This document shows, one piece after another, positions 34,283-50,590 of a stretch of 64,000 nt of DNA; the stretch's first letter is position 1, and each line of letters opens with the position of its first letter. The DNA is from Bacteroidales bacterium (GTDB lineage: Bacteria > Bacteroidota > Bacteroidia > Bacteroidales > WCHB1-69), in the NCBI GenBank assembly GCA_024400635.1, contig JAKSMI010000002.1:120305-184304 (forward strand), in the 5' to 3' direction. The notes beneath the pieces were generated by a model, which was given only the letters and a program-made list of their open reading frames with translations, was not told where the DNA came from and ran no database searches. A program made the translations under genes and the position numbers.

Positions 34283-34305
34283 CATCAGTTGCAAAAGGAA
34301 TCCTT

Positions 34306-34865: not shown

Positions 34866-34873
34866 CAAATATA
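34866..34873 (-). promoter_or_regulatory. Bacteroidota -7 promoter box (TAtaTTTG, minus strand) upstream of the PLD nuclease gene
   Basis: The plus-strand sequence CAAATATA is the reverse complement of TATATTTG. It lies 45 nt upstream of the ATG at 34821. Confidence 0.4.
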
Positions 34874-34951
34874 ATATTGAAAATTGTACGAAACAGAATT
34901 GGAAAATTTTTGGAACTGCATAAATTTTCGTATGAATTTTTATGATTGCCT

Positions 34952-35024
34952 GCAGACCTACGGTCTGCGTCAAATCCTCGTGCTGTTTCGTTGCTACCAA
35001 GCCCGGCAGACCAAACGGCCTGCC
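34952..35024 (-). other. GC-rich structured intergenic element (two strong hairpins), possible terminator or small RNA
   Basis: Hairpin 1 is GCAGACC-tac-GGTCTGC (34952-34968). Hairpin 2 is an 8-bp stem at 35005-35024 whose single non-Watson-Crick pair is A-C on the plus strand but G-U on the minus strand. Confidence 0.35.
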
Positions 35025-35083
35025 TCCTTTGCAGCGGTTGTCTGAACCATTGTTGGAGGTTTGAGTATATGTTAAAAGCTTTT

Positions 35084-36103: not shown

Positions 36104-36146
36104 AAATTTATTGTTTAATTTATTGCTTATTGTATGCATGTTTTTT

Positions 36147-36812
36147 TTACAAGAAAACTGAAATTTGGGAAAGTACTTCAAAAGCACCGCAATTATATTC
36201 TCTTATACTATCAATAGCAAGCTGCAACCCCAAAAGTTGTAGCTGACATTTTTCTCTAGTATTCTTGCTCATTTCCATAATTTCCTCTCTATCTGGCACA
36301 ACACCAGATAATGTGAGTTCGCTAAAAGCTTTAGTTGTGATTAAATCATCATCGTCTTTTGATAAAATACCGACAAGAATTGTTTCCATAACGCTAACAG
36401 CATTATTATCTTTATTGTTAAAGCCGATTGTTTTTAGCGCACTTCTTGCCACCTCTTTTAGAACGATTGAATATACATCGGATTCGGGTTGTTCGTATAC
36501 ACCGCCATCAACATATTCAATTTGTTCATCATCTTCTTTATAATCATTCAATCCAAATTGTATGCGTACTGAATATATGGCTTCATCTATTTTATCAAAC
36601 AAGTCTTCTATTTGTTCCTTAACAATCAGATTGTAATCTGGATTATTGTCAGAATAGTCAATAGACTTATTGATTTCATCCTTTAGTTGAGGCAAGTCAT
36701 CATATTCAATCTGGTCAATCTGTTCTTCCAGATAGTTAATATCAGCATCCTGCAGCTGTTTTAGACTCTCTAATCGATTTAAAATTGCTGTAAGCTTGTC
36801 AATGATTTCCAT
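36147..36812 (-). CDS. Highly acidic hypothetical protein
   Basis: The ORF is rich in D/E runs (DDLPQLKDE, YKEDDEQIEYVDGG, SKDDDDL). No domain was recognised. I start at the ATG at 36812 (MEIIDKL). Confidence 0.55.
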   Translation of the reverse strand: MEIIDKLTAILNRLESLKQLQDADINYLEEQIDQIEYDDLPQLKDEINKSIDYSDNNPDYNLIVKEQIEDLFDKIDEAIYSVRIQFGLNDYKEDDEQIEYVDGGVYEQPESDVYSIVLKEVARSALKTIGFNNKDNNAVSVMETILVGILSKDDDDLITTKAFSELTLSGVVPDREEIMEMSKNTREKCQLQLLGLQLAIDSIREYNCGAFEVLSQISVFL

Positions 36813-36886
36813 GTCGCTTTTAATTAACAAACACATGTTTTTCCACTCCGCAAAATTACAAAATTATCCCATTCACCATCATTGCC

Positions 36887-37093
36887 TCAAACAACAATTC
36901 CCTCCTCCTTTTCCACCTTTTCAATGCACTCCTCAATGTCAGCAATCAATTCTTTCAAAAACTCTATTTTTGCCGACTTGTCCGGGAAATTGTCAGGATT
37001 TGCTTCAAATTCACTCTCGATCAAGTCGCTGATTGTGAATTCACATCCTAAATCTTCTTCATCTGGGGCTACATAAAAATAATAATCGTTCAT
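36887..37093 (-). CDS. Very acidic 68-aa hypothetical protein
   Basis: Hand count: 21 D/E versus 5 K and no R in 68 residues. It is tightly packed in the minus-strand operon. Confidence 0.5.
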   Translation of the reverse strand: MNDYYFYVAPDEEDLGCEFTISDLIESEFEANPDNFPDKSAKIEFLKELIADIEECIEKVEKEEGIVV

Positions 37094-37099
37094 GTCTAT

Positions 37100-37612
37100 T
37101 CAATTTTTCTTTTGGTTTTTCTCGTTTGGAATGATTATTCGCTCAATATCATTTACAATTTGATTCCATCCTTGACTATTTTGTTCCTCAAAGGTGGTCA
37201 TGATGTCAATGAAGTTAAAAGAGACGATCGGCTGCTGTTTCAGCCACTTGATGGTTTTATATGATTCCGGCACGAAAACATTCGGTGCCAATTCGCAACT
37301 GTAACGATGCCCCCACAGACAAATCACAGACGTGGGAATGCGTGCAGCAAGATGATACTCTATTCTTCCCTTCAAATCTTCGTTTGTATCTTCGAATGGG
37401 TCCATTCAGGCCACAAAACAGCAGAGGGTCTTTTTTTCGTCAATGCTTGTCTCAATCTTGTCCCATCTTTCACTGGAGCAGCATTCGAACGCCTCGCTTT
37501 CTGCGCTTCTTGACATTATGTATTCCATTATCTCCACCGCTTTTGCTCCCAACGGGACAACGATGACTTTTTCAAAATGTGTGTTGGGGTTGTTAATAAT
37601 ATTCTTGATCAT
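37100..37612 (-). pseudogene. Hypothetical gene interrupted by an in-frame TGA that directly abuts an ATG (68-aa and 101-aa ORFs)
   Basis: ORFs 37406-37612 and 37100-37405 share one frame. They are separated only by TGA (37406-37408), which is followed directly by ATG (37403-37405). Both halves weakly resemble successive parts of the 186-aa protein at 39049-39609. Confidence 0.45.
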
Positions 37613-37730
37613 AACGTTTATATTGTTTTGGAACTAGTAGAATCAACCTCTGTCCGATTTTGATGCGGCAAAAACAGCGCATAGCTGTGCAAAAACGTAG
37701 CGCTGTAGGGTTGTCGCAATTCGGCACCCC

Positions 37731-38225
37731 TCACAATAACCGCATCGCAATCCTCGCACACGCCTCCGCGTCGGCGAGGGCGTGGTGGTGATGCTCCAGA
37801 TGATAGCCGCAGGCTGCCGCTACGGTGTGCAGTTGGTGGTCGGGGAGCTGTTGCCCGAAATGATGACGGGAGGCGCTGCAGGTGCAGTGAAATTCGTAAT
37901 CGGGATAGTCCATCTGATAGACTCGGAACACCGCCCGCAGACAGCTTTCGTCAAACGGGCTGTTGTGTGCCACTAAAGGCAATCTCTCAATCAGTGGCTC
38001 AATTTGTTGCCACACTCCTGGGAACACTGGCGCGTTGTCTGTGTCCTCGTGTGTGAGACCATGAACCTCCTGACAGAACCAGACATAGTAGTCGGGCTCA
38101 GGCTTGATGAGACTGTAAAACGTGTTGGCGATGAGACCGTTGCGCACAATCACCACGCCCACGCTGCATACGCTGCTGCGCTGTCCGTTGGCGGTTTCAA
38201 AATCAATGGCGGCGAAATCTTGCAT
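37731..38225 (-). CDS. DEDDh 3'-5' exonuclease (DnaQ/epsilon-like)
   Basis: ExoI AIDFETAN, ExoII HNSPFDESCL and ExoIII HHALADAEACARI motifs. I start at the ATG at 38225. The gene is visibly GC-rich. Confidence 0.85.
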   Translation of the reverse strand: MQDFAAIDFETANGQRSSVCSVGVVIVRNGLIANTFYSLIKPEPDYYVWFCQEVHGLTHEDTDNAPVFPGVWQQIEPLIERLPLVAHNSPFDESCLRAVFRVYQMDYPDYEFHCTCSASRHHFGQQLPDHQLHTVAAACGYHLEHHHHALADAEACARIAMRLL

Positions 38226-38272
38226 GATTGAACATTCTTTGGGTGTATTATAATGATTGCTTTCTTCCACGC

Positions 38273-38974
38273 TCAATCCAAACTTATCAGCTGATCCATA
38301 AACGCTTCTTGGCAGATATGATAGGTGGTCATACGCATGATGTCAGGAATGCTGAAGCACTGACTGTTACAAAGTTCACAGAAAGAGTAGCAAAACGAGA
38401 TTTCATAGGGCAGCGCGAGGTCTATTTCACACGACTCCTTAAGGGGCAAGCCGTTGTGGTAGGAGTCGTAAAAGTCTCCGCTGCAATAATATAAGCTGTC
38501 GGTCATTTCTATGCTATGTATTGTGTCGAGAATCTCTATGATGTCGTTCCATTGCGAACCGTAGAAACCGTCGTCTTCCCTGATGACAAGTTGCGGATTC
38601 TGATTGTCATGGAAGTAAGTCAAACTGGTGTTTAACTTGTAATCTGGGTGGATGGTTATCAGCTGTTGGTGTCTTTGTTTATGGACTTCCAAAACCTTTG
38701 CTTCCATCTGTACAAGCCGCCTGTTGGTCATTTCCAAATCCCGGATGTTGGCCTCTGAATAGCTCAATTCAAACATGCGATTCAGCAGCGCACAACGTAT
38801 CTCGGCTTTTGTCAATATTCTGTCCTGATTGCTGATGATGAACACCTCCTTGTCATTCTCATCGTAAGAGAGCCTCATAATCTCACTTTCACATTGTCTT
38901 ACATACCGCCGCAGATAGTCTGTGTCAGTTTGCTCTTGTATCTTAATGATTTCTAGATTGTTTTGATTAGTCAT
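38273..38974 (-). CDS. Hypothetical protein (233 aa)
   Basis: A long ORF in the operon with no domain recognised. Confidence 0.5.
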   Translation of the reverse strand: MTNQNNLEIIKIQEQTDTDYLRRYVRQCESEIMRLSYDENDKEVFIISNQDRILTKAEIRCALLNRMFELSYSEANIRDLEMTNRRLVQMEAKVLEVHKQRHQQLITIHPDYKLNTSLTYFHDNQNPQLVIREDDGFYGSQWNDIIEILDTIHSIEMTDSLYYCSGDFYDSYHNGLPLKESCEIDLALPYEISFCYSFCELCNSQCFSIPDIMRMTTYHICQEAFMDQLISLD

Positions 38975-39013
38975 ATTAATAATTTGAATTACACTGGCAA
39001 AAATGGAATGTAT

Positions 39014-39032
39014 GTGTGCTAAAATGTGGCAC
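39014..39032. promoter_or_regulatory. Palindromic operator-like site TGTGCtA-N5-TGGCACA
   Basis: Inverted repeat in the 74-nt gap upstream of the gene starting at 38974. It has the same half-sites and spacing as the site at 39652-39670. Confidence 0.4.
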
Positions 39033-39048
39033 AGTAAACTGCTGGCTA

Positions 39049-39609
39049 TTAGCTATTAGCCGTTGGTTCTCTATTCTTTGGTTTCCTCCCCACAATCATC
39101 TCCGCAACTCTTAGTTCCATGCTTGCCAAAAAGTCCACCAATGGCATATTGCCATAAGCTTTAGATAGTTCTTCCTGCATGTCAATCACGTGGATGTCAT
39201 CCACGCCCAAGAAACGGCGGTCGAGGGGACGGTCGTACAGTTTGGAGGCGAATCGTGGCGGCAAGAGGTAGATGAGATGTCGCTTGATGTTGGCGTGATG
39301 CGCTTTGCACCATAAGAGGTTAACCCCTATGGCTGCAATTTGCAGCTCCGTGTTCGAGCAACCGTGATTTACATTCGGATTCGGGTGAGGCTTGGGTACC
39401 ATGTTCGAGGGCGAGTCCCACACGAGGAGCCACACCTCCACGGACGGGTCGTATAGTCCATCCTCCGCACAATAGAGGTTCTCCCTGACAAAATTTTCAC
39501 TTTCCATCCATTCGTATGCGTATGAGGAGGGCAGGTGCTGCATAATACCCTCTTTGCACTGCACGGCGTTGTAGCCCACAGGAATAATGATGTGTTTCGT
39601 TCTATCCAT
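39049..39609 (-). CDS. Hypothetical protein (186 aa), first gene of the minus-strand operon
   Basis: An ORF with no domain recognised. It shows weak similarity to the split gene at 37100-37612 (HIIIPVGYNAVQCKEGIM vs KVIVVPLGAKAVEIMEYIM; LLWCKAHH vs ICLWGHRY). Confidence 0.5.
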   Translation of the reverse strand: MDRTKHIIIPVGYNAVQCKEGIMQHLPSSYAYEWMESENFVRENLYCAEDGLYDPSVEVWLLVWDSPSNMVPKPHPNPNVNHGCSNTELQIAAIGVNLLWCKAHHANIKRHLIYLLPPRFASKLYDRPLDRRFLGVDDIHVIDMQEELSKAYGNMPLVDFLASMELRVAEMIVGRKPKNREPTANS

Positions 39610-39651
39610 TTTCTTTAATGTTTAAATACGCTGACAAAAATAGAACATCGC

Positions 39652-39670
39652 TGTGCCATATTTTGGCACA
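39652..39670. promoter_or_regulatory. Perfect palindromic operator-like site TGTGCCA-N5-TGGCACA in the divergent promoter region
   Basis: A perfect 7-bp inverted repeat in the 100-nt gap between the divergent operons (39609 minus, 39710 plus). It sits 10 nt upstream of the TAttTTTG box at 39680. Confidence 0.45.
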
Positions 39671-39679
39671 CAATCATTC

Positions 39680-39687
39680 TATTTTTG
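39680..39687 (+). promoter_or_regulatory. Bacteroidota -7 promoter box (TAttTTTG) upstream of the AAA+ ATPase operon
   Basis: TATTTTTG lies 23 nt upstream of the ATG at 39710. Confidence 0.45.
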
Positions 39688-39709
39688 CAACGTTCAAAAT
39701 TATAATGCT

Positions 39710-41440
39710 ATGAAAAAAGAAAACATTTTGCAGACATTGAGTTTTCTGGCGCTGAAAATGGAAAACTCCGGAACTGCCTTGTTAGAGGCAATTGCGCCTG
39801 ATTCTATTGCACATTTAGACTACACATTTACACGGCAGAACGAATCCACCATTCATAAAGAGTTTAGCAAAACAGAGATATGTGAGATTGTTAAAAAGTT
39901 GGAGGATGTCGCCAAATTCCTCGGTATCTCAACCATTCAGGCTGTTATTATGATGGTTGCCTTCTGCAATAAATTCCAAGACAATTATATAGATTGGAAC
40001 GATGTCCACAAATTTTTCAATGTAAAGAGTATGGTGCTGCTTCCTTTGAAAAAAGAATTTGACCGTCTGGTATCTGGTAAATTCCTAAAACGAGCTGGTA
40101 AAAGACATTCTGAATATTATGATATTGAGCAAAAAGTGGTGGACTCCGTAATGAATGAACATCCATTTGACCCTTGTATATTGAAAGAAGCACGTCTCGA
40201 TCGATATAAATTTGTCAACGAAATTTCCGATTTGATCGAGCTACGTAGTGATGACGAGATATCCACCTCCGATCTTTTTGAACGTTCATATGAGATGGAA
40301 CAACAGAACAATACTCTTACTTTTGTTCAGAATGTCAAGAAATTGAATCTTGAGACTAAAGACAGAGTCTTATTCTATGAGATTTGCGACGATTTTCTTG
40401 CTCATGGTGAAACGGGAATCAATTGTACGCTGAAGGACATGTATAGTAATCCTAGCACTCGTTTTCGAATTGCAAAGGAGTTGATGGACGAAAAGCAGAT
40501 TCTGCAAAAGTTAGATTTAGTGATCCTCCTTCGTGACACAATTTTCTCTGATAGTAATTTGACCCTGACCGAAAAAGGGAAACAACTCTTTTTAGAGGAA
40601 GATTTCGAGCTTTTTGCCAAATCCAAAAATCGAGACCATAAAACAATATACCCCGAAGACATTCAAGAAAAGTCCTTGTTTTATGATGAAGAACTCTCGC
40701 GACAGCTAAATCTGCTGAAAGAAAATCTCCAAGAAGAGCGTTTCACAGAGCTGCAAAAACGATTGGAAGAACAGTCGCTACCTAAGGGGGTTGCTGCCAT
40801 CTTCCATGGGCAACCTGGCACAGGGAAAACCGAAACTGCGATGCAAATTGCCAAAGCTACAGGTCGTGCAGTGTGTCACGTGGACATTGCAAGTTCCAAA
40901 AGTTGCTGGTTTGGTGAAAGCGAAAAACTTATTAAGCGTATATTTACCGATTATGCTGGACTGTGCAAAAAATCCCCTCTTAAGCCGATTCTACTTTTCA
41001 ACGAAGCAGACGCTCTCTTTTCCAAACGCAAGGATAGCATTTCATCAAACGTGGCGCAAACAGAGAATGCCATCCAAAACATTATCCTTGAAGAAATGGA
41101 AAAACTGGATGGAATACTCATAGCTACCACCAATCTCATAGATAACTTGGACAGAGCTTTTGAACGACGTTTTCTATTCAAAATCCATTTCAACAATCCC
41201 ACGGTGGAAGCAAAACAATCTATCTGGAAGAGCAAACTCTCTTGGTTGTCTGAAAACGAAAGTCGCATACTCGCAGAACGCTACAATTTCTCAGGCGGCG
41301 AAATCGACAACATCGTCCGCAAGGTTATTATGGATGAGGTACTCAACGGAATACACCCTGACATGCAATTCGTTGAAGAACTATGTCGCTATGAAAAGAT
41401 TGGCAACAAGGAGACGAGCTTTATTGGGTTTAGAAAATGA
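39710..41440 (+). CDS. AAA+ ATPase (classical AAA module at the C-terminus, ~350-aa unknown N-terminal region)
   Basis: Walker A GQPGTGKT, Walker B ILLFNEADALF, sensor-1 ATTN and an arginine-finger region ERRF. I start at the ATG at 39710. Confidence 0.8.
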   Translation: MKKENILQTLSFLALKMENSGTALLEAIAPDSIAHLDYTFTRQNESTIHKEFSKTEICEIVKKLEDVAKFLGISTIQAVIMMVAFCNKFQDNYIDWNDVHKFFNVKSMVLLPLKKEFDRLVSGKFLKRAGKRHSEYYDIEQKVVDSVMNEHPFDPCILKEARLDRYKFVNEISDLIELRSDDEISTSDLFERSYEMEQQNNTLTFVQNVKKLNLETKDRVLFYEICDDFLAHGETGINCTLKDMYSNPSTRFRIAKELMDEKQILQKLDLVILLRDTIFSDSNLTLTEKGKQLFLEEDFELFAKSKNRDHKTIYPEDIQEKSLFYDEELSRQLNLLKENLQEERFTELQKRLEEQSLPKGVAAIFHGQPGTGKTETAMQIAKATGRAVCHVDIASSKSCWFGESEKLIKRIFTDYAGLCKKSPLKPILLFNEADALFSKRKDSISSNVAQTENAIQNIILEEMEKLDGILIATTNLIDNLDRAFERRFLFKIHFNNPTVEAKQSIWKSKLSWLSENESRILAERYNFSGGEIDNIVRKVIMDEVLNGIHPDMQFVEELCRYEKIGNKETSFIGFRK

Positions 41441-41517
41441 GTGTCTAATAATTCGCATAGGTCGCACCATTTTCTATCTAATACGTGCGCTGTTTTACCA
41501 TATTAAGACATGCCGTT

Positions 41518-42147
41518 ATGTTAAAATTTTTACGGGAAACACTTTCTATCGGGGACTTTGTGGAGGTAGAAACTTCCACAGGATTAGTGCGTGGCTCCAT
41601 CTTGGAAATACCACCTGATTGTTTGGTGATGCTAACTGATGGCGAACTGCACGAATATTCAGAGGAGCAGTTGTTGAGTATCAAATACTTTTCCGATGAT
41701 CACGATGCCTATCGGGATTGTTATATCCAAAAGTTTATACCAGAAGAAAAGAGTGAGAGATATTTTTGGGCAGAAAACCACAATGGATCGTTGTGTTGCA
41801 CGAATTTCGACAACATCATCACAATTTTTATGGGCTGGAATATGCGTTTCCAACGCGGTCATCTTGACTTGCCCGACTTGATTGATGTGGAGGACGAATA
41901 CTATAATATAGAAGTCTTGAGCAATGATTGTGATGATTGTTTTTCAGACTATATCACTTCCGTCAAGTTACCGAAACATTTGAAGAGTATTGAGCTACTA
42001 TTCATAGGAAGAATCTTCCTCCAGAAAATATATGTTCCCGATACTTTAGTTTATTCGGGAGGGTACAAAATAGGCGGTTGCACCACATGTCAAGTTTTCG
42101 ACATGAATGGAAAACTTTTGGATTGGGAGTTTGAAGAGGATTGGTAA
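41518..42147 (+). CDS. Hypothetical protein (209 aa)
   Basis: An ORF following the ATPase gene with no domain recognised. The start is taken at the ATG at 41518 (MLKFLRETL). Confidence 0.5.
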   Translation: MLKFLRETLSIGDFVEVETSTGLVRGSILEIPPDCLVMLTDGELHEYSEEQLLSIKYFSDDHDAYRDCYIQKFIPEEKSERYFWAENHNGSLCCTNFDNIITIFMGWNMRFQRGHLDLPDLIDVEDEYYNIEVLSNDCDDCFSDYITSVKLPKHLKSIELLFIGRIFLQKIYVPDTLVYSGGYKIGGCTTCQVFDMNGKLLDWEFEEDW

Positions 42148-42177
42148 ACAGTGCCGCACTTTTGCACACTCCCGATA

Positions 42178-42185
42178 TATTTTTG
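42178..42185 (+). promoter_or_regulatory. Bacteroidota -7 promoter box (TAttTTTG) upstream of leader copy A
   Basis: TATTTTTG lies 19 nt upstream of the conserved leader element. Confidence 0.4.
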
Positions 42186-42203
42186 CCGCAGGTTCCATAC
42201 CAT

Positions 42204-42273
42204 ACGCCCTCGCCGAAAAGCGTTCAATAGAGTAGGCATTTTTAAAAGTTGTGCCCGACACGTACTAGGGAGA
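42204..42273 (+). repeat. Conserved leader element, copy A (upstream of the 79-aa ORF)
   Basis: ACGCCC..GCCGAAAAGCGTTCAATAGAGTAGGCA - variable spacer - AGTTGtGCCCGACACGTAcTAGGGA. It ends 0-5 nt before an ATG. Its counterpart lies at 43647-43720. Confidence 0.8.
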
Positions 42274-42513
42274 ATGATTATGCCGCAAATGATAGTCTAT
42301 AATGGGGAACTGATACGTATTAGCCCCAAAAACAAGAGAAAAATAGAGGTGTCTACTAATCATGGTGGATCATGGATGACCCGCTGTGTTGGATCTGCCA
42401 GCACTGGAGAATTCCTTGATTTGGTAAACAATGGATCTGAGATAATTGCCACCACCGAAAAAGGGCTGTTCGTCTCTTCCAACAACGGAGGATCTTGGAT
42501 AAGAAGAAGTTAA
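42274..42513 (+). CDS. Small protein with two degenerate BNR/Asp-box-like motifs (STNHGGSW, SSNNGGSW)
   Basis: A 79-aa ORF starting right after leader copy A. The S-x-N-x-G-G-S-W motif occurs twice. Confidence 0.5.
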   Translation: MIMPQMIVYNGELIRISPKNKRKIEVSTNHGGSWMTRCVGSASTGEFLDLVNNGSEIIATTEKGLFVSSNNGGSWIRRS

Positions 42514-42539
42514 CAATTATCCCTAAAAAATATACCACT

Positions 42540-42818
42540 ATGAGAAATTTAAAAAACAACATGCTGGCACTGATACTTGTGATTTGCAATTTTGCTGTCT
42601 ATGCAGAAACTGCTTCGGAAGCTGCCAACCCTTCAGAATCCAACATTTTCATTGAGATCTTGGTTTACGCTTTGATTTTCGGAATCCCATTGTTGGTGAT
42701 TATCCGAAAAATTAGGCGAAAAATCAGGAACTTCAAGGAGGATGTAAAAAGTGGCGGTTTCGGAGAAGCAACCATGAGCCGTTTGGAAGACCATTTCGAC
42801 AGAAAGAACAAGAAATAG
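42540..42818 (+). CDS. Small secreted/membrane protein (signal peptide + one TM + basic tail)
   Basis: MRNLKNNMLALILVICNFAVYA signal, a TM helix (IFIEILVYALIFGIPLLVII), and then RKIRRKIRNFK. Confidence 0.5.
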   Translation: MRNLKNNMLALILVICNFAVYAETASEAANPSESNIFIEILVYALIFGIPLLVIIRKIRRKIRNFKEDVKSGGFGEATMSRLEDHFDRKNKK

Positions 42819-42838
42819 TAGACTAAACGCTTCTCGTC

Positions 42839-43678
42839 ATGAATCTTAAATTCTTTTTCAGTTCCATTGTTTCGAACCGCTATTTTGAGTGGACGATAAC
42901 GATTGTTATTCTCGTGAACGCGGTACTTATCGGTATCGAACTAAATGTTTGTGATCCCACCATCGAACTGATACAGAGGATTATTTTGCTGATTTTTACC
43001 GTGGAAATCCTGATGCGATTCATGGCGAGAGAAAATGTGAGGGAGTTTTTCTCTAACGGTTGGAACATCTTCGACCTCGCTCTTGTGTTGATTGGTTATA
43101 TTCCAGAGGATCTTTTTGCCAATGCTTCCGCCATGATGGCTATTAGGGTGCTCCGTGTATTGCGCGTACTTCGATTGCTCAGGGCTGGAAAAGAAATCAA
43201 ACTTATCACTACTGTGCTTACCAAATCGATGGTTTCAATGGTGTGGTACGTCATCCTGTTTGCGATTTTCATTTACCTGTTTGCTATAATAGGGGTAAGC
43301 ATGTTCAAGTTGCCCGACCCCGAAAAGCTAACGCAAGAAGACCGCTCAAGATACGAACAGTTTATGCGTGAAGTTCACAACGCCCCCGACAACTCTCCTG
43401 ACCCGTTCGGGTCGTTGTCGGAAGCAATGTTTACTCTATTTCGCGAGCTAACAGGCGAGGATTGGACAGACCTGCGTTACAACACTATCTCCGCCTACGA
43501 GTACGGCGTTATCCGAGTGAATCCTGTGGTCATCACGACCTACCACATACTTTGGTTTTCGCTGTCAGTCTTCCTGTTGCTGAACTTAGTTACAGGATCA
43601 ATCATCAATAACTATCAAAACATAAAGGAAGAGCAAAATAGTCAAAACGCCCCAGCCGAAAAGCGTTCAATAGAGTAG
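42839..43678 (+). CDS. Six-TM voltage-gated-type cation channel (BacNav/ion_trans family) with a TGEDW selectivity-filter motif
   Basis: S1-S6 can be laid out by eye. S4 is RVLRVLRVLRLLR, with Arg at every third position. The pore helix and filter read AMFTLFRELTGEDWTDLRY. Confidence 0.82.
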   Translation: MNLKFFFSSIVSNRYFEWTITIVILVNAVLIGIELNVCDPTIELIQRIILLIFTVEILMRFMARENVREFFSNGWNIFDLALVLIGYIPEDLFANASAMMAIRVLRVLRVLRLLRAGKEIKLITTVLTKSMVSMVWYVILFAIFIYLFAIIGVSMFKLPDPEKLTQEDRSRYEQFMREVHNAPDNSPDPFGSLSEAMFTLFRELTGEDWTDLRYNTISAYEYGVIRVNPVVITTYHILWFSLSVFLLLNLVTGSIINNYQNIKEEQNSQNAPAEKRSIE

Positions 43679-43720
43679 GCAAAAAATTCTAGCAGTTGCG
43701 CCCGACACGTATTAGGGAAA
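43647..43720 (+). repeat. Conserved leader element, copy B (overlaps the channel gene 3' end, upstream of the 73-aa ORF)
   Basis: Same blocks as copy A: a 27-nt identical core GCCGAAAAGCGTTCAATAGAGTAGGCA, then AGTTGcGCCCGACACGTAtTAGGGA. Confidence 0.8.
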
Positions 43721-43725
43721 CGAAA

Positions 43726-43947
43726 ATGAGTAAGGTTTATAGAATCACACCGAAAGCTATTCACAGAACAAACAACACCGTTCTGACTCCTGAGATGGAA
43801 ATCATCGTGACTTTAGAGCGTCACACATCCGATCCATTCTACAATGGTGCAAAAGAAATCAAAGCCATGTATATGGACAGATATGGTTTTGATTATGAGC
43901 GGGCGAATGCTACAAAAGCTTGGTTTGATTATGAGAGATTAGACTAA
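43726..43947 (+). CDS. Small soluble hypothetical protein (73 aa)
   Basis: An ORF starting 5 nt after leader copy B (MSKVYRITPKAIHRTNNTVLTPEMEIIVT...). It resembles small proteins I recall from Bacteroidota mobile elements, but I cannot name a family with certainty. Confidence 0.5.
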   Translation: MSKVYRITPKAIHRTNNTVLTPEMEIIVTLERHTSDPFYNGAKEIKAMYMDRYGFDYERANATKAWFDYERLD

Positions 43948-43971
43948 CCATTTGTTAAACACAAATACTAC

Positions 43972-44003
43972 ATGACGGGCAGGATTTTACTCCTGCCCGT
44001 CAT
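43972..44003. terminator. Perfect 13-bp hairpin between convergent genes (probable terminator, no clear U-tract)
   Basis: ATGACGGGCAGGA-ttttac-TCCTGCCCGTCAT. Confidence 0.5.
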
Positions 44004-44093
44004 ATTGAAAAACCTTTCTTGGTATACTTTTCTATAACATTTACACCAAAGAAGCCATATACCAATCTTATTGATTATCAACAATTCACAAAC

Positions 44094-44173
44094 AAAGTTC
44101 TCTTAAAGTTCTCTTAAAGTTCTCTTAAAGTTCTCTTAAAGTTCTCTTGAAACTCCCCTACTTTAAGAGAACT
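44094..44173. repeat. Iteron-like array: five tandem 11-bp repeats (AAAGTTCTCTT) plus one inverted copy
   Basis: Five perfect head-to-tail units span 44094-44148. The inverted copy TTAAGAGAACT at 44163-44173 overlaps the stop codon of the minus-strand gene. Confidence 0.9.
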
Positions 44174-45860
44174 ATTTTCGTCTCCATAACTTCTTCTCTC
44201 CAAAAACTATTTTGTCTGCTTTTCGTAGAGACGTTAGCAAGTTACCTATCTTGGATACTTTCTGTTTGTCAGTTAAAGCTTCGGGTAATTTCGTCATCAA
44301 CAGCGTATCAATTTCAGGACGACTCATTGTCACATGTTGATCCAATGCTTTTAGGATAAGATCCTTGTAGTAATTATCATCGAATCCCTTGTTACGAGTG
44401 TATTCCGCTTTTTGACCTGTAGCTTTGGCCACACTCTTGGCAAAAAACAATGCATTCTTTCGACCTTCAATCAGTTTGCGCTTTCTCAAGTAAGCAATTT
44501 CCTCATCACTTAGTGGACGATTGGTTTGTAACCTGCTCAACATTTCAATGTCAAGCAAAGTCAGTGTTTTGTCTCTGGTCAAGAGCATGGCATAGTCAAT
44601 GTCCACCACTTTGCCGATAATCGTCACTTTAACCCTATCGTCACTAAATTCATAATCAGGCATAGGGAATAAGCGTTCGCGTTGTTTGTTAAACATCCGT
44701 CTGATACCGCTGCCAATCGTATCCACCATGCCCAATTCCACCATTGCTGTTGCCAGAAACCTGTTACGATAATGTTCCTCAGGAGCATCGTTTATCAACA
44801 CATTCTTAATGCTGTTGGGAATGAAAGTCCCCAAATTGGTAAAGATCAGTCGGTCTTCTTCCTCTATTACGTTAATCATTCCATAACGTCCATAGTCCTG
44901 ATGAGCTATGGCATTATTTAATGCTTCCCGAATGATAAAAGGGTCGTATGTATCCAGCTCGTCTGGCACTAGCGAAAGAAGTTCTGGATTCATATATCTG
45001 TACTTCCAGTTGCGTATTTTCCTGTAAACCGTATTAGCTGCAATAACAAACGGACATGTTTCAATGGAGAAATCTTTCTCTTCACCGTTGGAATCCTTGT
45101 ATATCCATCTGATACGTGCAACAGCTGGCGAAATAAAATGTTCGCTCTCGGTGCGTCCCAACAATAATATTGCGGTATTGGTTATCTGGCCTTGTTTGGT
45201 TATCTTTGCTTTGTTCAGAAACCTCACATCATCCCACGATTTCATCTCCACTATCAGGTCTTCGTGTTTCTTGGCGTACATCTTGCGAGCTTCTTTGATG
45301 GCATCGGGATCAAGATCGTCAAATGTGGCATCTTTTACGATTTCGGCACTCCAGTCTTTCTGTGAGTTGTATATTTGGCGAACATAGTCTGGAAAATCTT
45401 TGAGTTTCGTCAGATTGCTTCCAACCCTCACATAAGCAGCTCCCTTGAAATTTACAGGTTCTCCTGCCGCAGCCTGTATCTCGAAAATAACAATGTGTTT
45501 GTCTTCGTACTCGAACTCCTCTATTTCAAAGGGGGTAATGGGCGAACAGTTTTTTCTAAGCCATAGTTCATAATCCTGATTGCCATATTTAGCTGTCGGC
45601 ATTCTCAGATTAGTTCCAACCACATTCCATGTCCCATCCTCCACTCCTAGAACCAAATAACCGTGTGATTTGTATTTCAAGCAGGCTGAATTGGAAAGAC
45701 CAGAGATGTAGTTTCCAACCCCCTCATACGTAACGCTGCATCGAGACTCGCCAATATTAGTCTTAAACTCCATCCATTCCGTTTCTCCAGCACTTTGGCG
45801 TTGGCGAGCCTGTGCCAACAGATCCTCCAACAGTATATATTGTTCTTCAATTGTTTTCAT
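44172..45860 (-). CDS. AlbA_2/Schlafen-like DNA-binding domain protein with a GHKL-type ATPase-like region and C-terminal wHTH (often annotated RecG-like or putative transcriptional regulator)
   Basis: 562 aa and a paralogue of 55175-56845. Shared blocks include FLNKAKIT..G.IT.TA.LLLG, ARIRW, REALNNAIAHQDY and RMFNKQRERLFPMPDY. The family call is from recall. Confidence 0.65.
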   Translation of the reverse strand: MKTIEEQYILLEDLLAQARQRQSAGETEWMEFKTNIGESRCSVTYEGVGNYISGLSNSACLKYKSHGYLVLGVEDGTWNVVGTNLRMPTAKYGNQDYELWLRKNCSPITPFEIEEFEYEDKHIVIFEIQAAAGEPVNFKGAAYVRVGSNLTKLKDFPDYVRQIYNSQKDWSAEIVKDATFDDLDPDAIKEARKMYAKKHEDLIVEMKSWDDVRFLNKAKITKQGQITNTAILLLGRTESEHFISPAVARIRWIYKDSNGEEKDFSIETCPFVIAANTVYRKIRNWKYRYMNPELLSLVPDELDTYDPFIIREALNNAIAHQDYGRYGMINVIEEEDRLIFTNLGTFIPNSIKNVLINDAPEEHYRNRFLATAMVELGMVDTIGSGIRRMFNKQRERLFPMPDYEFSDDRVKVTIIGKVVDIDYAMLLTRDKTLTLLDIEMLSRLQTNRPLSDEEIAYLRKRKLIEGRKNALFFAKSVAKATGQKAEYTRNKGFDDNYYKDLILKALDQHVTMSRPEIDTLLMTKLPEALTDKQKVSKIGNLLTSLRKADKIVFGEKKLWRRK

Positions 45861-45990
45861 ATAAGCTATCTTCGTTCAAATTCATTCTACAAATAATAGA
45901 AAATTTCAATTTGCAAAAGTACACAATTTCCGCCAATCAAGCTTTGTGCGGAATTCTCAACCGACTCTATATGCCTGCCCACTCCAATGG

Positions 45991-46302
45991 TTAATCCCCG
46001 AAATCACATAAGTCGTCTATAAGATCAAAATCATCCTCCATCATGTCTCTCGTCTGTGCTGGATCCCGATAGTAAACGGCTACGCGTTCCAAAGGCAATT
46101 CCACTCCGAACAATGAAGCCCACGAATGGATTTGATCAAGCACCTCCACGCCGTCGAAGTTATTGGAATCAACCAGACATTGCACACAGAACCTGCCGTC
46201 TTCTTCTATCACTTCAATGGATACGTTTGTTGGCTCCCCGTTAAGAACCATTTTAGTTTCAAGTTCGTTTCTTTTTGCCTTTGTTTCAATACTAGTGGCC
46301 AT
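45991..46302 (-). CDS. Acidic hypothetical protein (~103 aa)
   Basis: An ORF between the integrase and the AlbA_2-like gene. The start is taken at the ATG at 46302 (MATSIETKAK). The C-terminus is MMEDDFDLIDDLCDFGD. Confidence 0.45.
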   Translation of the reverse strand: MATSIETKAKRNELETKMVLNGEPTNVSIEVIEEDGRFCVQCLVDSNNFDGVEVLDQIHSWASLFGVELPLERVAVYYRDPAQTRDMMEDDFDLIDDLCDFGD

Positions 46303-46365
46303 ATTTTTGTTGTTTATATTATTGGTTTTGTTGTTAAATGTCGCAAAACAGGTCAAGAGTACTCT

Positions 46366-47628
46366 CTACATCACCTCTTTGTAGAGTTGTTCTTTTATTG
46401 CTTTGCTCTGCATCATTGCACTTGTCCGTAACGAGTTAATGTATCCTTGCGTGGTTGTGGGGTTGGCGTGTCCCATATCCATTTGTATATCCATTAGAGA
46501 CCTCCCATTCTCACACTGAAAACTCGCATAAGTATGCCTTGCCTGCGCCATAGTGGTGTGCGGTAATCCGAGTTCTTCGGTGACCATACGGAGTCCCATA
46601 TTGGCACGGTAGTTAATATCGTTGATTCTGTCGTTAATTTGTCTCTCTGTATGAGTGTTAGCAAGAAAGGGGAAGATGTAGTCGTTAGGGCACGACTTAT
46701 TCACGCTCCCATATTTCGTGATGAGTTGCATCCCCAAGTCTGTAGGATAGATCGAAACGGGTATCGCGTGGCGTTTTGTTTTGTGTCTAACAAACTCGAT
46801 TTTCCACCCCACTTCCGTCAGACTAATGTTTTTGTTCTTGAGGCGCAAGATGTCACTCAAGTAATGTCCGTTGAGGTCAAATGATAGAACAAAAAAGTCT
46901 CTGCCAAATTGCGCCTTCTCATCAGAACTTCTGTATGCAAGTATTTGCTGGAGGCTATGAACCGTCAAGCCGTAATTAACCTTCCTTGTTGAAGTGAGTG
47001 AAAACTTCTTAAACGGGCGTTTGTCCTCAATGTATCCTTTCTCTACCGCGTAATTATAGACCGCCCTTATGCTCCTAAAATACATATTGACGGTGTTTTG
47101 CGAAATATCAGGTCTGTAGCGGTGCATAAAGGTGTCCAGCCGCGATAGCATTTCTCCCGTGATTTCATCCAATGTGATTCTGTCCTTGAACTTCACTATC
47201 CAATTCAAAGCAGTGTGATATGCTGATATGGTTCTGTCCGATAGTGGTCGAGTTCTATTGGCGTCTGACAAGTACTCTGCAAAAATAGTTCGCATATCGT
47301 AGGCACTGGAAGTTTCTCCGCGAATCATCTTTTTATAGTCTCGGTAGAATGATTCAAAACTAAACGAGTCTCCGAGTTTTCCTATTATCTCAATAGCGGC
47401 GTTGTAGTCAGCGCGAATCTCCTCATAAGCCTCCTTGTACTTCTTGAGGTGCTTGTTCTGGAACTCCGCCGCCGTTAATTGTATTGTGCTATTGGTTGCG
47501 AAATAGCGGGGGATCCGATTATATGTGATCCGCAACTCAAGTGTGCGTTTGTCACTAATTGGTTCGGACATTGTTTTACTCCTCCTGTGATTTCGCACTA
47601 TTTCAACGGCTGGTTTTTTCATACTCAA
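46366..47628 (-). CDS. Tyrosine recombinase / integrase (second, distinct from the one at 31972)
   Basis: The catalytic region is ARHTYASFQCENGRSLMDIQMDMGHANPTTTQGYI. It is adjacent to attR and transcribed into the island. Confidence 0.85.
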   Translation of the reverse strand: MSMKKPAVEIVRNHRRSKTMSEPISDKRTLELRITYNRIPRYFATNSTIQLTAAEFQNKHLKKYKEAYEEIRADYNAAIEIIGKLGDSFSFESFYRDYKKMIRGETSSAYDMRTIFAEYLSDANRTRPLSDRTISAYHTALNWIVKFKDRITLDEITGEMLSRLDTFMHRYRPDISQNTVNMYFRSIRAVYNYAVEKGYIEDKRPFKKFSLTSTRKVNYGLTVHSLQQILAYRSSDEKAQFGRDFFVLSFDLNGHYLSDILRLKNKNISLTEVGWKIEFVRHKTKRHAIPVSIYPTDLGMQLITKYGSVNKSCPNDYIFPFLANTHTERQINDRINDINYRANMGLRMVTEELGLPHTTMAQARHTYASFQCENGRSLMDIQMDMGHANPTTTQGYINSLRTSAMMQSKAIKEQLYKEVM

Positions 47629-47721
47629 AATTTTTCCCTCTTTATAGTAATATAATAAAAAAAATTATAATTTTGCGCCACAATCAAAAAAAGTAATGAA
47701 AGTGTTGTCAACATATATGGT

Positions 47722-47744
47722 ATGGACTAACAAATGGACTAACA
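47722..47744 (+). repeat. Two direct 11-nt repeats (ATGGACTAACA) near attR, candidate arm-type sites
   Basis: ATGGACTAACA occurs at 47722-47732 and 47734-47744, between the integrase start and the att repeat. Confidence 0.5.
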
Positions 47745-47859
47745 TTTGCCACAATCTTCACTAAACAAACAAAAACGTTTTTGTCATAATATACTGATTT
47801 TCTGGCTATTATTAGTGTCTTGCGAAAATAAAAAAAACTATGAAAAAAAACATAACATA

Positions 47860-47955
47860 ACTGTTAATCAGAGGGTCCTAGGTTCAAGTCCTAGAGGGAG
47901 CGCAACCACAAAGCACCAATTCTCAATGAATTAGGTGCTTTTTTTGTTGCCTTCC
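47860..47955 (+). repeat. Direct repeat 2 (attR-like): displaced 3' half of tRNA-Asn plus terminator
   Basis: See repeat 1. It lacks the 5' half of the tRNA, so it is not a functional tRNA gene. Confidence 0.9.
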
Positions 47956-48102: not shown

Positions 48103-49653
48103 ATGACTAAAGAACAAGAACGTGCGGAACTGCACCGTGCTATATGGCAAATTGCTAACGACCTGCGTGGCAGCGTGGACGGCTGGGATTTCAAGGCATA
48201 CGTCTTGGGTATGCTGTTCTACCGATTCATTTCTGAAAACCTTACCGAATACATTAACAAGGGCGAGCACGAAGCAGGCAATCCCGACTTCAACTATGCC
48301 GAGCTTGATGACGCACAAGCGGAGTATGGTCGTGAGGATACCGTCAAGGAGAAAGGTTTCTACATTCTGCCGAGCGAGTTGTTCGTGAATGTCCGCAAGC
48401 AAGCCAAGAATGATGAGAACCTTAACGAGACTTTGGCAAAGGTTTTTGATAACATTGAGAAATCTGCTATCGGTACGGAATCCGAAGATGACCTGCGTGG
48501 TTTGTTCGATGACATTGATGTCAATTCCAACAAACTGGGTGCCACGGTTGCCAAACGGAATGAGAAGTTGGTGAAGATTTTGGATGCCATTGGCGATTTG
48601 AAGTTGGGTCGTGTTGAGGACAACACCAACGATTTGTTCGGCGATGCCTACGAATACCTTATGACGATGTATGCCAGCAGTGCAGGTAAGAGCGGTGGCG
48701 AGTTTTACACACCGCAGGAGGTTTCGGAGCTGTTGGCGAAGATTACCTTGGTCGGAAGGAAAGAAGTGAACAAGGTTTATGACCCTGCCTGCGGTAGCGG
48801 TTCCCTGTTGTTGAAGTTTGCCAAGGTGTTGGGTAAGGAAAAGGTGCGTCAAGGATTCTATGGTCAAGAGATAAACATTAGCACCTACAATCTGTGCCGA
48901 ATCAATATGTTCCTGCACAATATCAACTATGAGAAGTTTGACATTGCCCACGGCGATACCTTGCTGGAGCCGAAGCATTGGGATGATGAACCCTTTGACT
49001 GCATTGTTTCCAACCCGCCTTATAGCATTAAGTGGGCTGGCGATGACAATCCGTTGCTGATTAACGATGAGCGATTCTTACCCGCAGGGGTGTTGGCTCC
49101 AAAAAGCAAAGCGGACTTGGCTTTCACGATGCATATGCTGGCGTGGTTATCTACAAGCGGAACGGCTGCAATCGTTGAGTTCCCTGGCGTGTTGTATCGT
49201 GGCGGTGCGGAACAAAAAATCAGAAAGTATCTCATTGACAACAACTATGTGGACACCGTGTTCCAGCTGCCACCTGATTTGTTTTTCGGTACAAGCATTG
49301 CCACCTGCATTATCGTTTTGAAGAAGTCTAAAAAAGACAACAGCATTCTGTTCGTGGATGGCAGTGCTGAGTTTGTTCACGAAGGAAATAAGAACAAACT
49401 TTCGCAGGCGAACATTGACAAACTGCTGAACGCATTTAAGGAGCGCAAGGACGTTGACCATTTCTGCAAGTTGGTATCTTGCGAAGATGTGGTGGCCAAC
49501 GACTGCAACCTTTCCGTCAGCAGTTATGTGGAGCAAGAGGACACACGAGAGGAAATCAATATAGTGGAGTTGAACCGCAGCATTGCTGAAATCGTTGCCC
49601 GCCAACAAGTGCTGCGGACGGAAATTGACAAGATAGTTGCGGATTTGGAATAA
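48103..49653 (+). CDS. hsdM: Type I restriction-modification system methyltransferase subunit
   Basis: SAM motif DPACGSGSLL, catalytic motif NPPYSIKW, and an HsdM N-terminal domain. Confidence 0.92.
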   Translation: MTKEQERAELHRAIWQIANDLRGSVDGWDFKAYVLGMLFYRFISENLTEYINKGEHEAGNPDFNYAELDDAQAEYGREDTVKEKGFYILPSELFVNVRKQAKNDENLNETLAKVFDNIEKSAIGTESEDDLRGLFDDIDVNSNKLGATVAKRNEKLVKILDAIGDLKLGRVEDNTNDLFGDAYEYLMTMYASSAGKSGGEFYTPQEVSELLAKITLVGRKEVNKVYDPACGSGSLLLKFAKVLGKEKVRQGFYGQEINISTYNLCRINMFLHNINYEKFDIAHGDTLLEPKHWDDEPFDCIVSNPPYSIKWAGDDNPLLINDERFLPAGVLAPKSKADLAFTMHMLAWLSTSGTAAIVEFPGVLYRGGAEQKIRKYLIDNNYVDTVFQLPPDLFFGTSIATCIIVLKKSKKDNSILFVDGSAEFVHEGNKNKLSQANIDKLLNAFKERKDVDHFCKLVSCEDVVANDCNLSVSSYVEQEDTREEINIVELNRSIAEIVARQQVLRTEIDKIVADLE

Positions 49654-49654
49654 T

Positions 49655-49682
49655 GTAGAATTTAGAATTTAGAATGTAGAAT
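49655..49682 (+). repeat. Heptamer array (GTAGAAT TTAGAAT TTAGAAT GTAGAAT) directly after the hsdM stop
   Basis: Four tandem 7-nt units start 2 nt after the stop codon. Confidence 0.85.
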
Positions 49683-49712
49683 GTTTTACTACAACAGAAG
49701 GAGGGCTGACGT

Positions 49713-50588: not shown

Positions 50589-50590
50589 CA

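Follow-up and report, generated by a model that had tools for sequence, protein, structure and literature searches.

A known RNA motif joined to a conserved start-proximal box forms a reused leader in Bacteroidales, a probable joint for cassette exchange

Introduction

Bacteroidota make little use of the Shine-Dalgarno sequence, and how start codons are chosen in this phylum without Shine-Dalgarno pairing is only partly understood. Upstream translational enhancers are known as well, such as the epsilon sequence in the leader of T7 gene 10. The leader described here ends in a conserved box that resembles Shine-Dalgarno sequences and translational enhancers in that it is short, single-stranded and set at a constant distance from the AUG. 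The conserved part of the box spans about 25 nt, however, and is far longer than a Shine-Dalgarno sequence, and its 14-nt upstream core has no significant complementarity to rRNA.

Conserved elements of the 5' UTR that are reused before many accessory operons are also represented by JUMPStart/ops and the RfaH-type NusG paralogues. Some phage loops of DUF805b RNA, the motif that makes up the first half of our leader, resemble what we take to be the ops core (GCGGUAGCC and GGCGGUAG, respectively), but the copies described here do not retain this stretch of the loop (CGCCCUCGCC), and the distance from ops elements to the start codon, unlike that from the box, is not fixed. The DUF805b motif is grouped with DUF805 in clan CL00115; the original report is that of Weinberg et al. 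(2017, NAR 45:10811, PMC5737381), whose main text makes no mention of DUF805b. A search of the literature on DUF805 and DUF805b returned no account of the function of the RNA.

The closest described cassette systems are integrons (attC/attI) and the rAID-1 arrays of Bacteroidales, the latter described as having a tyrosine recombinase, short co-oriented genes and conserved intergenic motifs (Ross et al., 2019, bioRxiv 10.1101/471110; PMC12247911). Our locus shares with them a promoterless segment between direct conserved copies, alleles with an empty site, short co-oriented genes and a recurring intergenic motif, but differs in having no adjacent integrase and in that most copies of the motif are single. 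Unlike in integrons, the repeat stands 5' of each gene and contains no attC-like imperfect palindrome. Set beside the description of rAID-1, a XerD-like recombinase and behind it an array of short co-oriented genes that share one intergenic motif, the locus shows just two copies and no adjacent recombinase.

The leader, which is used before genes of gut and rumen Bacteroidales, was found twice in a window of 64,000 nt, the whole stretch of Bacteroidales DNA that was analyzed (contig JAKSMI010000002.1). It consists of the known DUF805b motif joined to an uncatalogued, highly conserved box. Probably it is a portable, two-part, cis-acting mRNA leader that sets the translation start and at the same time supplies homology for the exchange of cassettes. 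The preliminary description of the locus had proposed either a cis-regulatory leader or direct repeats flanking a cassette; both readings are supported by the data below and are not mutually exclusive.

Organization of the locus

Two copies of about 70 nt each had been reported, and both were recovered on the plus strand at 42204-42273 (copy A) and 43647-43720 (copy B). They have in common a core of 27 identical nt and a second block of 25 nt. There are exactly two occurrences of the core, GCCGAAAAGCGTTCAATAGAGTAGGCA, in the window (42212-42238 and 43655-43681) and none in 100 shuffled sequences. The second block, AGTTGYGCCCGACACGTAYTAGGGA (42247-42271 and 43694-43718), likewise found no match in shuffles, and a repeat search recovered both blocks (D14, 94% identity; D15, 84% identity). 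The variable spacer of 8-12 nt that had been noted between them is 8 nt long in copy A (TTTTTAAA, 42239-42246) and 12 nt long in copy B (AAAAATTCTAGC, 43682-43693). Because the two spacers are completely different in sequence, the copies are not the product of a recent simple duplication. Two direct copies 1.44 kb apart could be taken for a neutral, functionless remnant of a local duplication, a reading that deserves next to no weight given that, beside the unrelated spacers, each half is found again in hundreds of independent loci and the leader shows 100% conservation between flanks of 79% identity.

The two leaders would belong to a four-gene operon driven by one promoter. A candidate -7 box of the Bacteroidota type (TAnnTTTG), TATTTTTG at 42178-42185 on the plus strand, was read from the sequence; the hairpin of leader A begins 18 nt downstream, and the same spacing is found in four related loci (L097, L142, L160 and L166). 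Among the 44 long open reading frames of the window, 17 have TAnnTTTG upstream and 8 a Shine-Dalgarno-like tetramer, which are signals of the Bacteroidota type.

Leader A is composed of a DUF805b-type hairpin with its tail (UCAAUAGAGUAGGCA, 42203-42238), the spacer and the start-proximal box (AGTTGTGCCCGACACGTACTAGGGA, 42247-42271), and would head the first cistron (42274-42513), which encodes a protein of 79 aa with weak BNR/Asp-box matches. Both copies had been described as ending 0-5 nt before an ATG. An ATG does follow copy A at 42274, but a second in-frame ATG at 42280, 9 nt after the GGG of the box, is the likelier start, because this distance fits the 7-10 nt seen in about 100 other copies; the protein would then have 77 aa. 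In relatives, this position is occupied by a 44-aa gene (MYTLNFPNG). The second cistron (42540-42818) encodes a single-pass membrane protein of 92 aa, which is 65% identical to the product of a 75-aa gene preceding the channel gene in locus L174, and the third (42839-43678) an ion channel of 279 aa (Pfam Ion_trans PF00520, E = 2.3e-45) with 1,581 homologues at E <= 1e-20.

Leader B lies within the operon (DUF805b hairpin and tail, 43646-43681; box AGTTGCGCCCGACACGTATTAGGGA, 43694-43718) and would head the last cistron, with its DUF805b half overlapping the 3' end of the channel gene. This overlap had been put at 8 codons; it extends over about 10 codons including the stop, a TAG inside GAGTAGGCA with which the channel frame ends at 43678. 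The GGG of box B ends 8 nt before the ATG of the fourth cistron (43726-43947), which, like the other three, is read from the plus strand. Its 73-aa product is DUF6140-like (Pfam PF19637, E = 0.002, below the curated cut-off) and 84% identical to that of the DUF6140 gene of locus L172, a gene that has a promoter and a box. The 79-aa and 73-aa proteins, described from the outset as unrelated, show no mutual similarity by BLASTP. A 15-bp hairpin at 43970-44005, a candidate bidirectional terminator, closes the operon.

The DUF805b half of the leader

Comparison with Rfam, as the preliminary description had suggested, identified the first half of the leader as DUF805b (RF02914), a hairpin of 3-4 bp with a GCCGAAAA loop and a single-stranded tail, AGAGUAGGCA. 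In each copy, the alignment takes in the first 36 nt and spans all 35 positions of the model. The gathering score of the family, 35.6 bits, is exceeded by copy B (37.4 bits) but not reached by copy A (32.0 bits; E = 1e-6 when 1.7 kb were searched). Copy A falls short because the 5' half of the loop, CCUCG or CCCAG in the window copies, differs from the GGAAG of the family. The hairpins of both copies consist of a 4-bp stem, ACGC paired with GCGU, and loops of 12 nt (CCUCGCCGAAAA and CCCAGCCGAAAA) ending in GCCGAAAA; for the conserved 3' tail of the family, AAnAGAGUAGGCA, both copies carry CAAUAGAGUAGGCA. The likeness to the family thus comprises the hairpin, the GCCGAAAAGC loop and stem, the tail and the location before a protein-coding gene in Bacteroidota.

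Covariation, likewise proposed at the outset as a test, was found in the DUF805b stem among 56 distinct instances from Bacteroidota phages and genomes, and the stem of leader A fits this covarying helix. The central pair is AU in 28, CG in 10, GC in 10 and UA in 6 instances, and the covariation score is 0.432 compared to 0.116 in shuffles, none of 500 of which reached the observed value; slid registers collapse. A possible pseudoknot between GCC of the loop and GGC of the tail has both sides invariant, and variants at the neighbouring loop position were, by eye, uncompensated.

Among viral matches to DUF805b, 61 of 63 precede an ATG, as do both window copies, and the phage instances often stand before genes for ParB-like nucleases and DNA methyltransferases. 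The ATG is mostly 17-23 nt away in phage instances but 35-45 nt away in the window, where the motif is fused to the second box. The downstream genes differ as well: the family is named for its association with DUF805, and the DUF805 domain had no match in the downstream proteins of the window or in 104 box-led genes. In one locus (L040), DUF805b lies too near a -7 box for the full hairpin to be transcribed from that box. With these data an orphan Rfam motif gains a setting, the 5' end of mRNAs, and heads defence-island operons in Bacteroidales.

Since it is conserved, lies in the 5' UTR and contains one covarying hairpin, the leader could also be a ligand-sensing riboswitch or another self-folding regulatory RNA. 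The sole supported helix, however, has 3-4 bp, and the genes downstream share no pathway. A riboswitch-like fold was rejected because whole leaders fold no better than shuffles (z +0.8 to +2.2), and this reading is very improbable.

The start-proximal box

The second half of the leader reads GTTGYGCCCGACAC (GUUGYGCCCGACAC), followed by 5-7 A/U-rich nucleotides and AGGG, about 8 nt before the AUG. Neither the 1.7-kb region nor the related loci yielded an Rfam family for the box at E <= 10, BLAST searches of annotated phages and plasmids had no relevant hit, and a full-text literature search by sequence matched only unrelated papers. In other genomes, the box was located in another 99 stretches, which belong to several Bacteroidales families, with two exact matches in viral contigs and about 16 more by a relaxed scan. 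Cultured carriers of the exact box include Parabacteroides acidifaciens 426-9 (L103) and Paludibacter sp. 221 (L093). It is almost always in sense orientation before the ATG of unrelated, mostly small genes.

The distance between GGG and ATG was determined for 112 instances and is 8 nt in 71, 7 nt in 14, 9 nt in 11 and 10 nt in 5 of them, so that 96 of the 112 fall within 8 +/- 1 nt. A strict TAnnTTTG occurs within 150 nt upstream of the box in 34 of the 112, at distances of 18-140 nt (between 18 and 62 nt in 24 of the 34). The variable distance to the -7 box indicates that the position of the box is tied to the start codon and not to the promoter; by the strict -7 criterion, an upstream promoter was identified for a minority of the copies. 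The box lies downstream of ordinary -7 boxes, of DUF805b hairpins or of a third RNA element, a helix with two covarying pairs, which places it in the 5' UTR, and the presence of DUF805b and the third covarying element shows that the adjoining upstream region is transcribed, structured RNA. Orthologous genes retain the box even where the 5' UTR around it has diverged (as in L088, L095, L111 and L149).

The box itself is nearly invariant and therefore offers no covariation, and its sequence alone does not separate a function at the RNA level from one at the DNA level. It might serve as the operator of a sequence-specific regulator or as the promoter of a specialized sigma factor or polymerase that yields leaderless mRNAs or mRNAs with a very short leader, in which case the 8 nt would reflect how far the promoter lies from the transcription start. 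An asymmetric, almost invariant element of about 25 bp in a single orientation would suit this function, TATTAGGG is loosely similar to the TAnnTTTG box and ends 8 nt before the ATG, many copies have no identifiable strict -7 box upstream, and some channel-type loci carrying the box encode WYL-WCX regulators. Yet the linker between GACAC and AGGG varies between 5 and 7 nt, which is poorly tolerated by promoters of fixed geometry, and the -7 boxes, DUF805b hairpins and covarying helix directly upstream would be pointless if transcription began after them. The box, which reads TATTAGGG or variants of it, contains no TAnnTTTG within the element when tested as a Bacteroidota sigma-A promoter, and has no dyad or direct-repeat symmetry. 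A WYL regulator was rejected as its partner, as none of the 104 loci L064-L167, mostly picked via the box, encodes a homologue at E <= 1e-5. The segment CGACACGTATTAGGGA matches 11 of 16 positions of what we take to be the T7 promoter, CGACTCACTATAGGGA; a T7-like promoter was nevertheless discarded in view of the variable linker and because no such polymerase is known in these genomes, and to our knowledge no single-subunit RNA polymerase is encoded by Bacteroidales chromosomes. Taken as a whole, action at the DNA level appears rather unlikely.

Action of the leader on the RNA, in cis, is the reading that we prefer. It agrees with the earlier proposal of a cis-regulatory leader, which the RF02914 match, the covarying stem and the fixed position relative to the start codon at about 100 loci support, and it is this position from which we infer that translation may be the controlled step. 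The leader would act as a largely unfolded recognition sequence beside the start codon and would set or regulate initiation via a trans-acting protein, a small RNA or direct binding of the 30S subunit. AGGGA has the spacing of a Shine-Dalgarno sequence, in a phylum where such sequences are normally not used. In our own comparison, it can form about five pairs (one of them G-U) with UUCCU at the 3' end of the 16S rRNA, with a spacing that is normal for Shine-Dalgarno pairing; this is a weak match. An enhancer that pairs with rRNA was rejected: the complementarity of the box and of DUF805b to the 16S and 23S rRNA of the Segatella copri rRNA operon does not exceed that of shuffled versions, and the longest complementary runs, G-U pairs counted, are 9-11 nt and are matched by 35-98% of shuffled queries. 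One 9-bp match lies in helix 45 beside the anti-Shine-Dalgarno sequence and is neither significant nor accessible, and a scan of the viral contigs found no rRNA. A mini-hairpin in the box (GUUG-YGCC-CGAC) is compatible with the three observed core variants, with a chance estimate of about 9%. The idea of a stop-codon trap in three frames was dropped, since the T of UAGGG varies, with CAGGG and AAGGG both observed.

More tentatively, the box could represent an undescribed class of start-codon-proximal control elements that extends across several Bacteroidales families and phage-like elements, with small genes of the envelope, zinc-ribbon and defence-island kinds, perhaps tens in each genome, as its regulon, one dedicated trans-acting factor and a specialized initiation route without Shine-Dalgarno pairing; its reuse may drive the exchange of promoterless cassettes, including ion-channel modules of defence islands. 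An almost invariant element of 25 nt (parts CCCGACAC and AGGG), held 8 nt ahead of the AUG in many genes that are unrelated to one another, offers a handle that can be tested by mutation.

Cassette exchange at the leader

The proposal that the repeats flank a cassette is supported by three relatives (L142, L160 and L166) that carry a single hybrid leader and lack a 1,447-bp three-gene segment (42265-43711, plus strand), which is present in the window and in L097. The relatives of the window are MAGs of Bacteroidales. The crossover lies inside an identical 12-mer, GCCCGACACGTA (42253-42264 and 43700-43711), within which the ends of the segment can slide. The 115 nt of promoter and leader are 100% identical in the three relatives, compared to 79-98% and 93-95% for the neighbouring genes. 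This comparison shows the 79-aa protein, the membrane protein and the channel to be a cassette that has apparently been swapped in or out at a reused leader. As the same leader stands before many unrelated genes, it supplies the short homology needed for gene exchange. Reused regulatory sequences can thus serve as joints for gene swapping, which bears on the turnover of accessory genes in gut and rumen Bacteroidales.

Several of these features would also be expected if the box were the core site of an integron- or rAID-1-like site-specific recombination that captures promoterless cassettes, and its position before the ATG a by-product of insertion. Leader B is not preceded by a -7 box belonging to the cassette, which lies between two direct copies, with the crossover in the 12-mer and three empty-site alleles. 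At least five other locus pairs lose homology at the box, and box-led genes are short, co-oriented and often clustered (L114, L100, L167 and L171-L176). The rAID-1 arrays are described as combining such genes with conserved intergenic motifs and a tyrosine recombinase (bioRxiv 10.1101/471110; PMC12247911). However, no recombinase gene adjoins the copies, the nearest integrase genes of the window (31948-33180 and 46366-47628) being at the ends of a 16-kb island. The box has no inverted-repeat arms, and the repeat unit, in place of an attC-like inverted repeat, folds like shuffles, with a single helix of 3-4 bp. At most loci, one copy stands before an ordinary chromosomal gene, and the retention of the box by orthologues with diverged flanks points to selection on expression. 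The Bacteroides, Paraprevotella and Parabacteroides species named for rAID-1 are absent among the 80 of 99 exact-box matches listed, in which P. acidifaciens is the only Parabacteroides. A classic rAID or integron array was rejected on the grounds that in L114, L100 and L139 the box occurs in only some intergenic regions. Site-specific capture is improbable as the explanation of the box.

The locus pairs outside the window in which homology is lost at the box include L128/L144, L090/L162, L174/L175 and L168/L171. The segment swapped between L128 and L144 has a conserved promoter at its other end, which is what homologous recombination between regulatory sequences in repeated use would produce.

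A two-part leader present twice in the window

The preliminary description had reported a duplicated leader of about 70 nt, and its layout was confirmed by searches of both strands of the window with up to 3 mismatches allowed. The 27-nt core lies at 42212-42238 (leader A, 42204-42273) and 43655-43681 (leader B, 43647-43720) and nowhere else, and a second conserved block of 25 nt occurs solely at 42247-42271 and 43694-43718; shuffled sequence gave no match to either block under the same settings. The spacer in between is variable as described (8 nt in A, 12 nt in B, with unrelated sequences), the proteins downstream of the two copies are indeed mutually unrelated, and copy B does overlap the channel ORF at its 3' end, the stop codon of this ORF being the TAG within GAGTAGGCA.

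The first half and the DUF805b family

The comparison with Rfam proposed at that stage, run on the whole window at the gathering threshold, returned two matches, one tRNA and RF02914 (DUF805b), the latter at copy B (43646-43681; 37.4 bits, gathering score 35.6). Copy A (42203-42238) is absent from these matches and was recovered only by a sensitive scan, in which it aligned to the full model with 32.0 bits (E = 1e-6). The model comprises a 4-bp hairpin, its 12-nt loop and a tail that is conserved. When viral contigs were scanned for the pattern, 63 loci emerged, 61 of which are clearly the same motif, each with an ATG shortly after it. The likewise proposed covariation test, on 56 distinct viral and genomic hairpins, revealed a covarying stem (central pair AU in 28, CG in 10, GC in 10, UA in 6, unpaired in 2) with a score of 0.432 vs. 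0.116 in shuffles, a value that 0 of 500 shuffles reached; covariation collapses when the helix register is slid by 1-3 columns. Model match and covariation identify the first half of the leader as a member of this known candidate RNA family.

Across 80 DUF805b instances, the majority of them on phage contigs, the GGC of the tail and the ATG are most commonly 17-23 nt apart (42 instances). Frequently a -7-like box, TAnnTTT[AG], has its end 7-11 nt upstream of the hairpin, which places DUF805b at the extreme 5' end of the mRNA. The 51 distinct phage proteins encoded downstream include 18 of a ParB-like family and 16 of a DNA methyltransferase family. The main text of the Rfam source paper (PMC5737381) does not discuss the motif, and no statement on its function was found in the literature searched, this main text included.

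The second half, a start-proximal box

The second half, referred to here as the box, includes an AGGG. A wider genome search found exact TTGYGCCCGACACGTAYTAGGG in 99 genome stretches and two viral contigs, and about 16 further box-bearing viral contigs came from a scan with a relaxed pattern. Carriers among the matches listed include Prevotella, Paraprevotella, Alloprevotella, Paludibacteraceae, Muribaculaceae, Parabacteroides, Culturomica, Dysgonomonadaceae, Candidatus Aphodosoma and many rumen and faecal MAGs. In practically all cases the box is in sense orientation with an ATG immediately downstream. Its position relative to the start codon is fixed: GGG precedes the ATG by 8 nt in 71 of 112 instances, by 7 nt in 14, by 9 nt in 11 and by 10 nt in 5. 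The core GTTGYGCCCGACAC and AGGG are nearly invariant, and they are joined by a linker of variable sequence and variable length (5-7 nt). The sole exact box without an ORF at the usual distance (L075, ~6909-6960, minus strand; L-numbers denote stretches compared with the window) follows a truncated IS5-like transposase fragment and has a terminator-like hairpin directly 3' of it.

Box-led genes encode short proteins, with a median of about 150 aa, and most have no Pfam family, the commonest matches being DUF6567 (6), Lipocalin_4 (5) and zinc ribbons (4). The box had no match in Rfam (window region and related loci) and was not found in annotated phage and plasmid collections or, searched by sequence, in the literature.

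Upstream partners and proposed mode of action

Of 112 box instances, 34 have a strict TAnnTTTG 18-140 nt upstream, the distance being 18-62 nt in 24 of these, and at about 12 loci the DUF805b hairpin lies 7-20 nt upstream. The third partner is a recurring element, GCGTGGGCTGTT...AAGG...ACCTC...CCACGCTTCTT, with a helix around ACGCUUCUU that contains two covarying pairs. The box is a widespread module separate from DUF805b. The variable promoter distance indicates that its position is set relative to the start codon rather than the promoter, and the hairpin or helix partners upstream place it within a transcribed leader RNA. An operator or promoter acting at the DNA level is a less likely reading. 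Leader folding was no better than that of dinucleotide shuffles (z +0.8 to +2.2).

We propose that the leader would act on RNA, setting or regulating initiation. AGGGA occupies the Shine-Dalgarno position, and window genes carry Bacteroidota-type signals, with few Shine-Dalgarno-like motifs, A-rich leaders and common TAnnTTTG. Complementarity of the 14-nt box core to Segatella copri rRNA was no greater than that of shuffled sequence, so that a protein or small RNA is a more likely partner than rRNA. New with respect to the literature and databases searched are the joining of DUF805b and a second box in one leader and the breadth, positional rigidity and gene-exchange junction role of this box. 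The comparison covered motifs given as text; the intergenic motif reported for rAID-1 arrays is published as a figure.

In its fuller form, the third element (GCGTGGGCTGTT...AAGG...ACCTC...GYGCCACGCTTCTT...GGCRC, ~90-130 nt) lies directly upstream of the box, about 40-170 nt from it, in L071, L072, L081, L102, L104, L110, L131, L135, L140, L145, L148, L151, L155 and others. Its P1 candidate, GCGUGG/CCACGC, is invariant. The element matched no Rfam family at E <= 1 and may represent a leader RNA not described before. L-numbers with a shorter relative, GGAGTCC...GGATGGCTCCACTTTCTT, are L078, L084, L117, L128, L138, L144, L146 and L164. Gut viral contigs (L064, L065, L177, L182, L186, L187, L199) have in common a promoter and 5' UTR, G-tract...TTGTTGTACTTTTG-GGTGTTCAAAGTATTAACAATTAGAA, with the box next in line; GTTCAA(A)GTA therein resembles the DUF805b tail region of the window.

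Selection and gene exchange at the box

From promoter region to box (42150-42264), all 115 nt are shared without a difference by the window and L142, L160 and L166, in which the upstream gene is 98%, 79% and 98% and the downstream gene 93-95% identical to the window. In orthologous genes of L088, L095, L111 and L149, the exact box is kept and the remaining 5' UTR has diverged. These comparisons demonstrate purifying selection on the leader at the sequence level.

The heptamer TGCCGCA flanks the window's -7 box on both sides (42152-42158 and 42184-42190), and the stretch 42152-42190 contains a short inverted repeat, GTGC...GCAC. The whole stretch is 100% conserved in L142, L160 and L166, with similar sequences flanking the L172 and L175 promoters, and may serve the regulator of the island as an operator.

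A water-buffalo reticulum MAG (L097, 96% identical to the window) has both leaders. The empty site sought in the preliminary description exists: two genomes (L142, L160) and a metagenome contig (L166) carry a single hybrid leader, composed of the copy A promoter, DUF805b, spacer A and TTGTGCCCGACACGTA, continued by copy B TTAGGGAA...ATG and the 73-aa gene. The alleles differ by 1,447 bp, with the switch point inside the 12-mer GCCCGACACGTA, which establishes a cassette polymorphism from the aligned sequences. By parsimony, the cassette was probably inserted in the lineage leading to the window and L097, the alternative being deletion. In L165 and L167 the same composite leader (~90% identical) precedes yet another gene, the third (MYTLNFPNG...), and an Mrr-like gene with its own box lies upstream.

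Homology is also lost at the box in L128/L144 and L090/L162, alike upstream and different downstream, and in the reverse pattern in L174/L175 and L168/L171. Switches at the box would suit a site-specific recombination site; in L128/L144, however, a conserved promoter forms the other end of the replaced segment, which favours homologous recombination between reused regulatory sequences; the site-specific reading is the less probable one. In L141 (2660-5809; same contig as L097), a 3.1-kb insertion without counterpart in the window (38977-39089) holds one more gene headed by the box, for which a separate -7 promoter box is present.

Island setting and other repeats

Homologues of the channel neighbour defence-island genes (GmrSD, McrBC, WYL-WCX, RNase_T, PLDc_2, Fic, integrase) in operons that open with a leader (DUF805b or promoter, plus box) and continue with a 44-aa gene, then a membrane protein, then the channel; the window has a 79-aa gene in place of the 44-aa gene, directly after the leader. 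The NaChBac-like Ion_trans channels of L168-L176 and the window (42274-43678), in Bacteroidales defence-island neighbourhoods, each occur together with a 44-aa protein and a small protein of membrane or SH3_3 type, a combination that could form a defence or abortive-infection module based on an ion channel. The 3' half and terminator (31773-31867) of a tRNA-Asn gene (31742-31816) are repeated at 47860-47955 with 98-100% identity. These repeats bracket an integrated island of ~16 kb (31742-47955) that includes leaders and cassette, two genes for tyrosine integrases (31948-33180; 46366-47628) and others for WYL-WCX, a PLD-like nuclease, Mrr, an RNase_T exonuclease, an AAA ATPase and a Schlafen/AlbA_2 protein.

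The 11-nt unit AAAGTTCTCTT is repeated five times in tandem at 44083-44159, in the gap that separates the operon terminator from the convergent 562-aa Schlafen/AlbA_2 gene at its 3' end. Arrays of 7 nt (GAATGTA/GAATGCA) occur at six sites within 49647-57547 (49647, 54022, 54608, 55029, 57078, 57506), 54563-54924 is duplicated ~2.47 kb away at 57033-57401 (84-97% identity), and a 33-nt unit occurs three times at 57658-57756. A 54-nt periodic repeat at 27761-28053, with four to five units of 63-80% identity, probably encodes a repeated protein domain on the minus strand.
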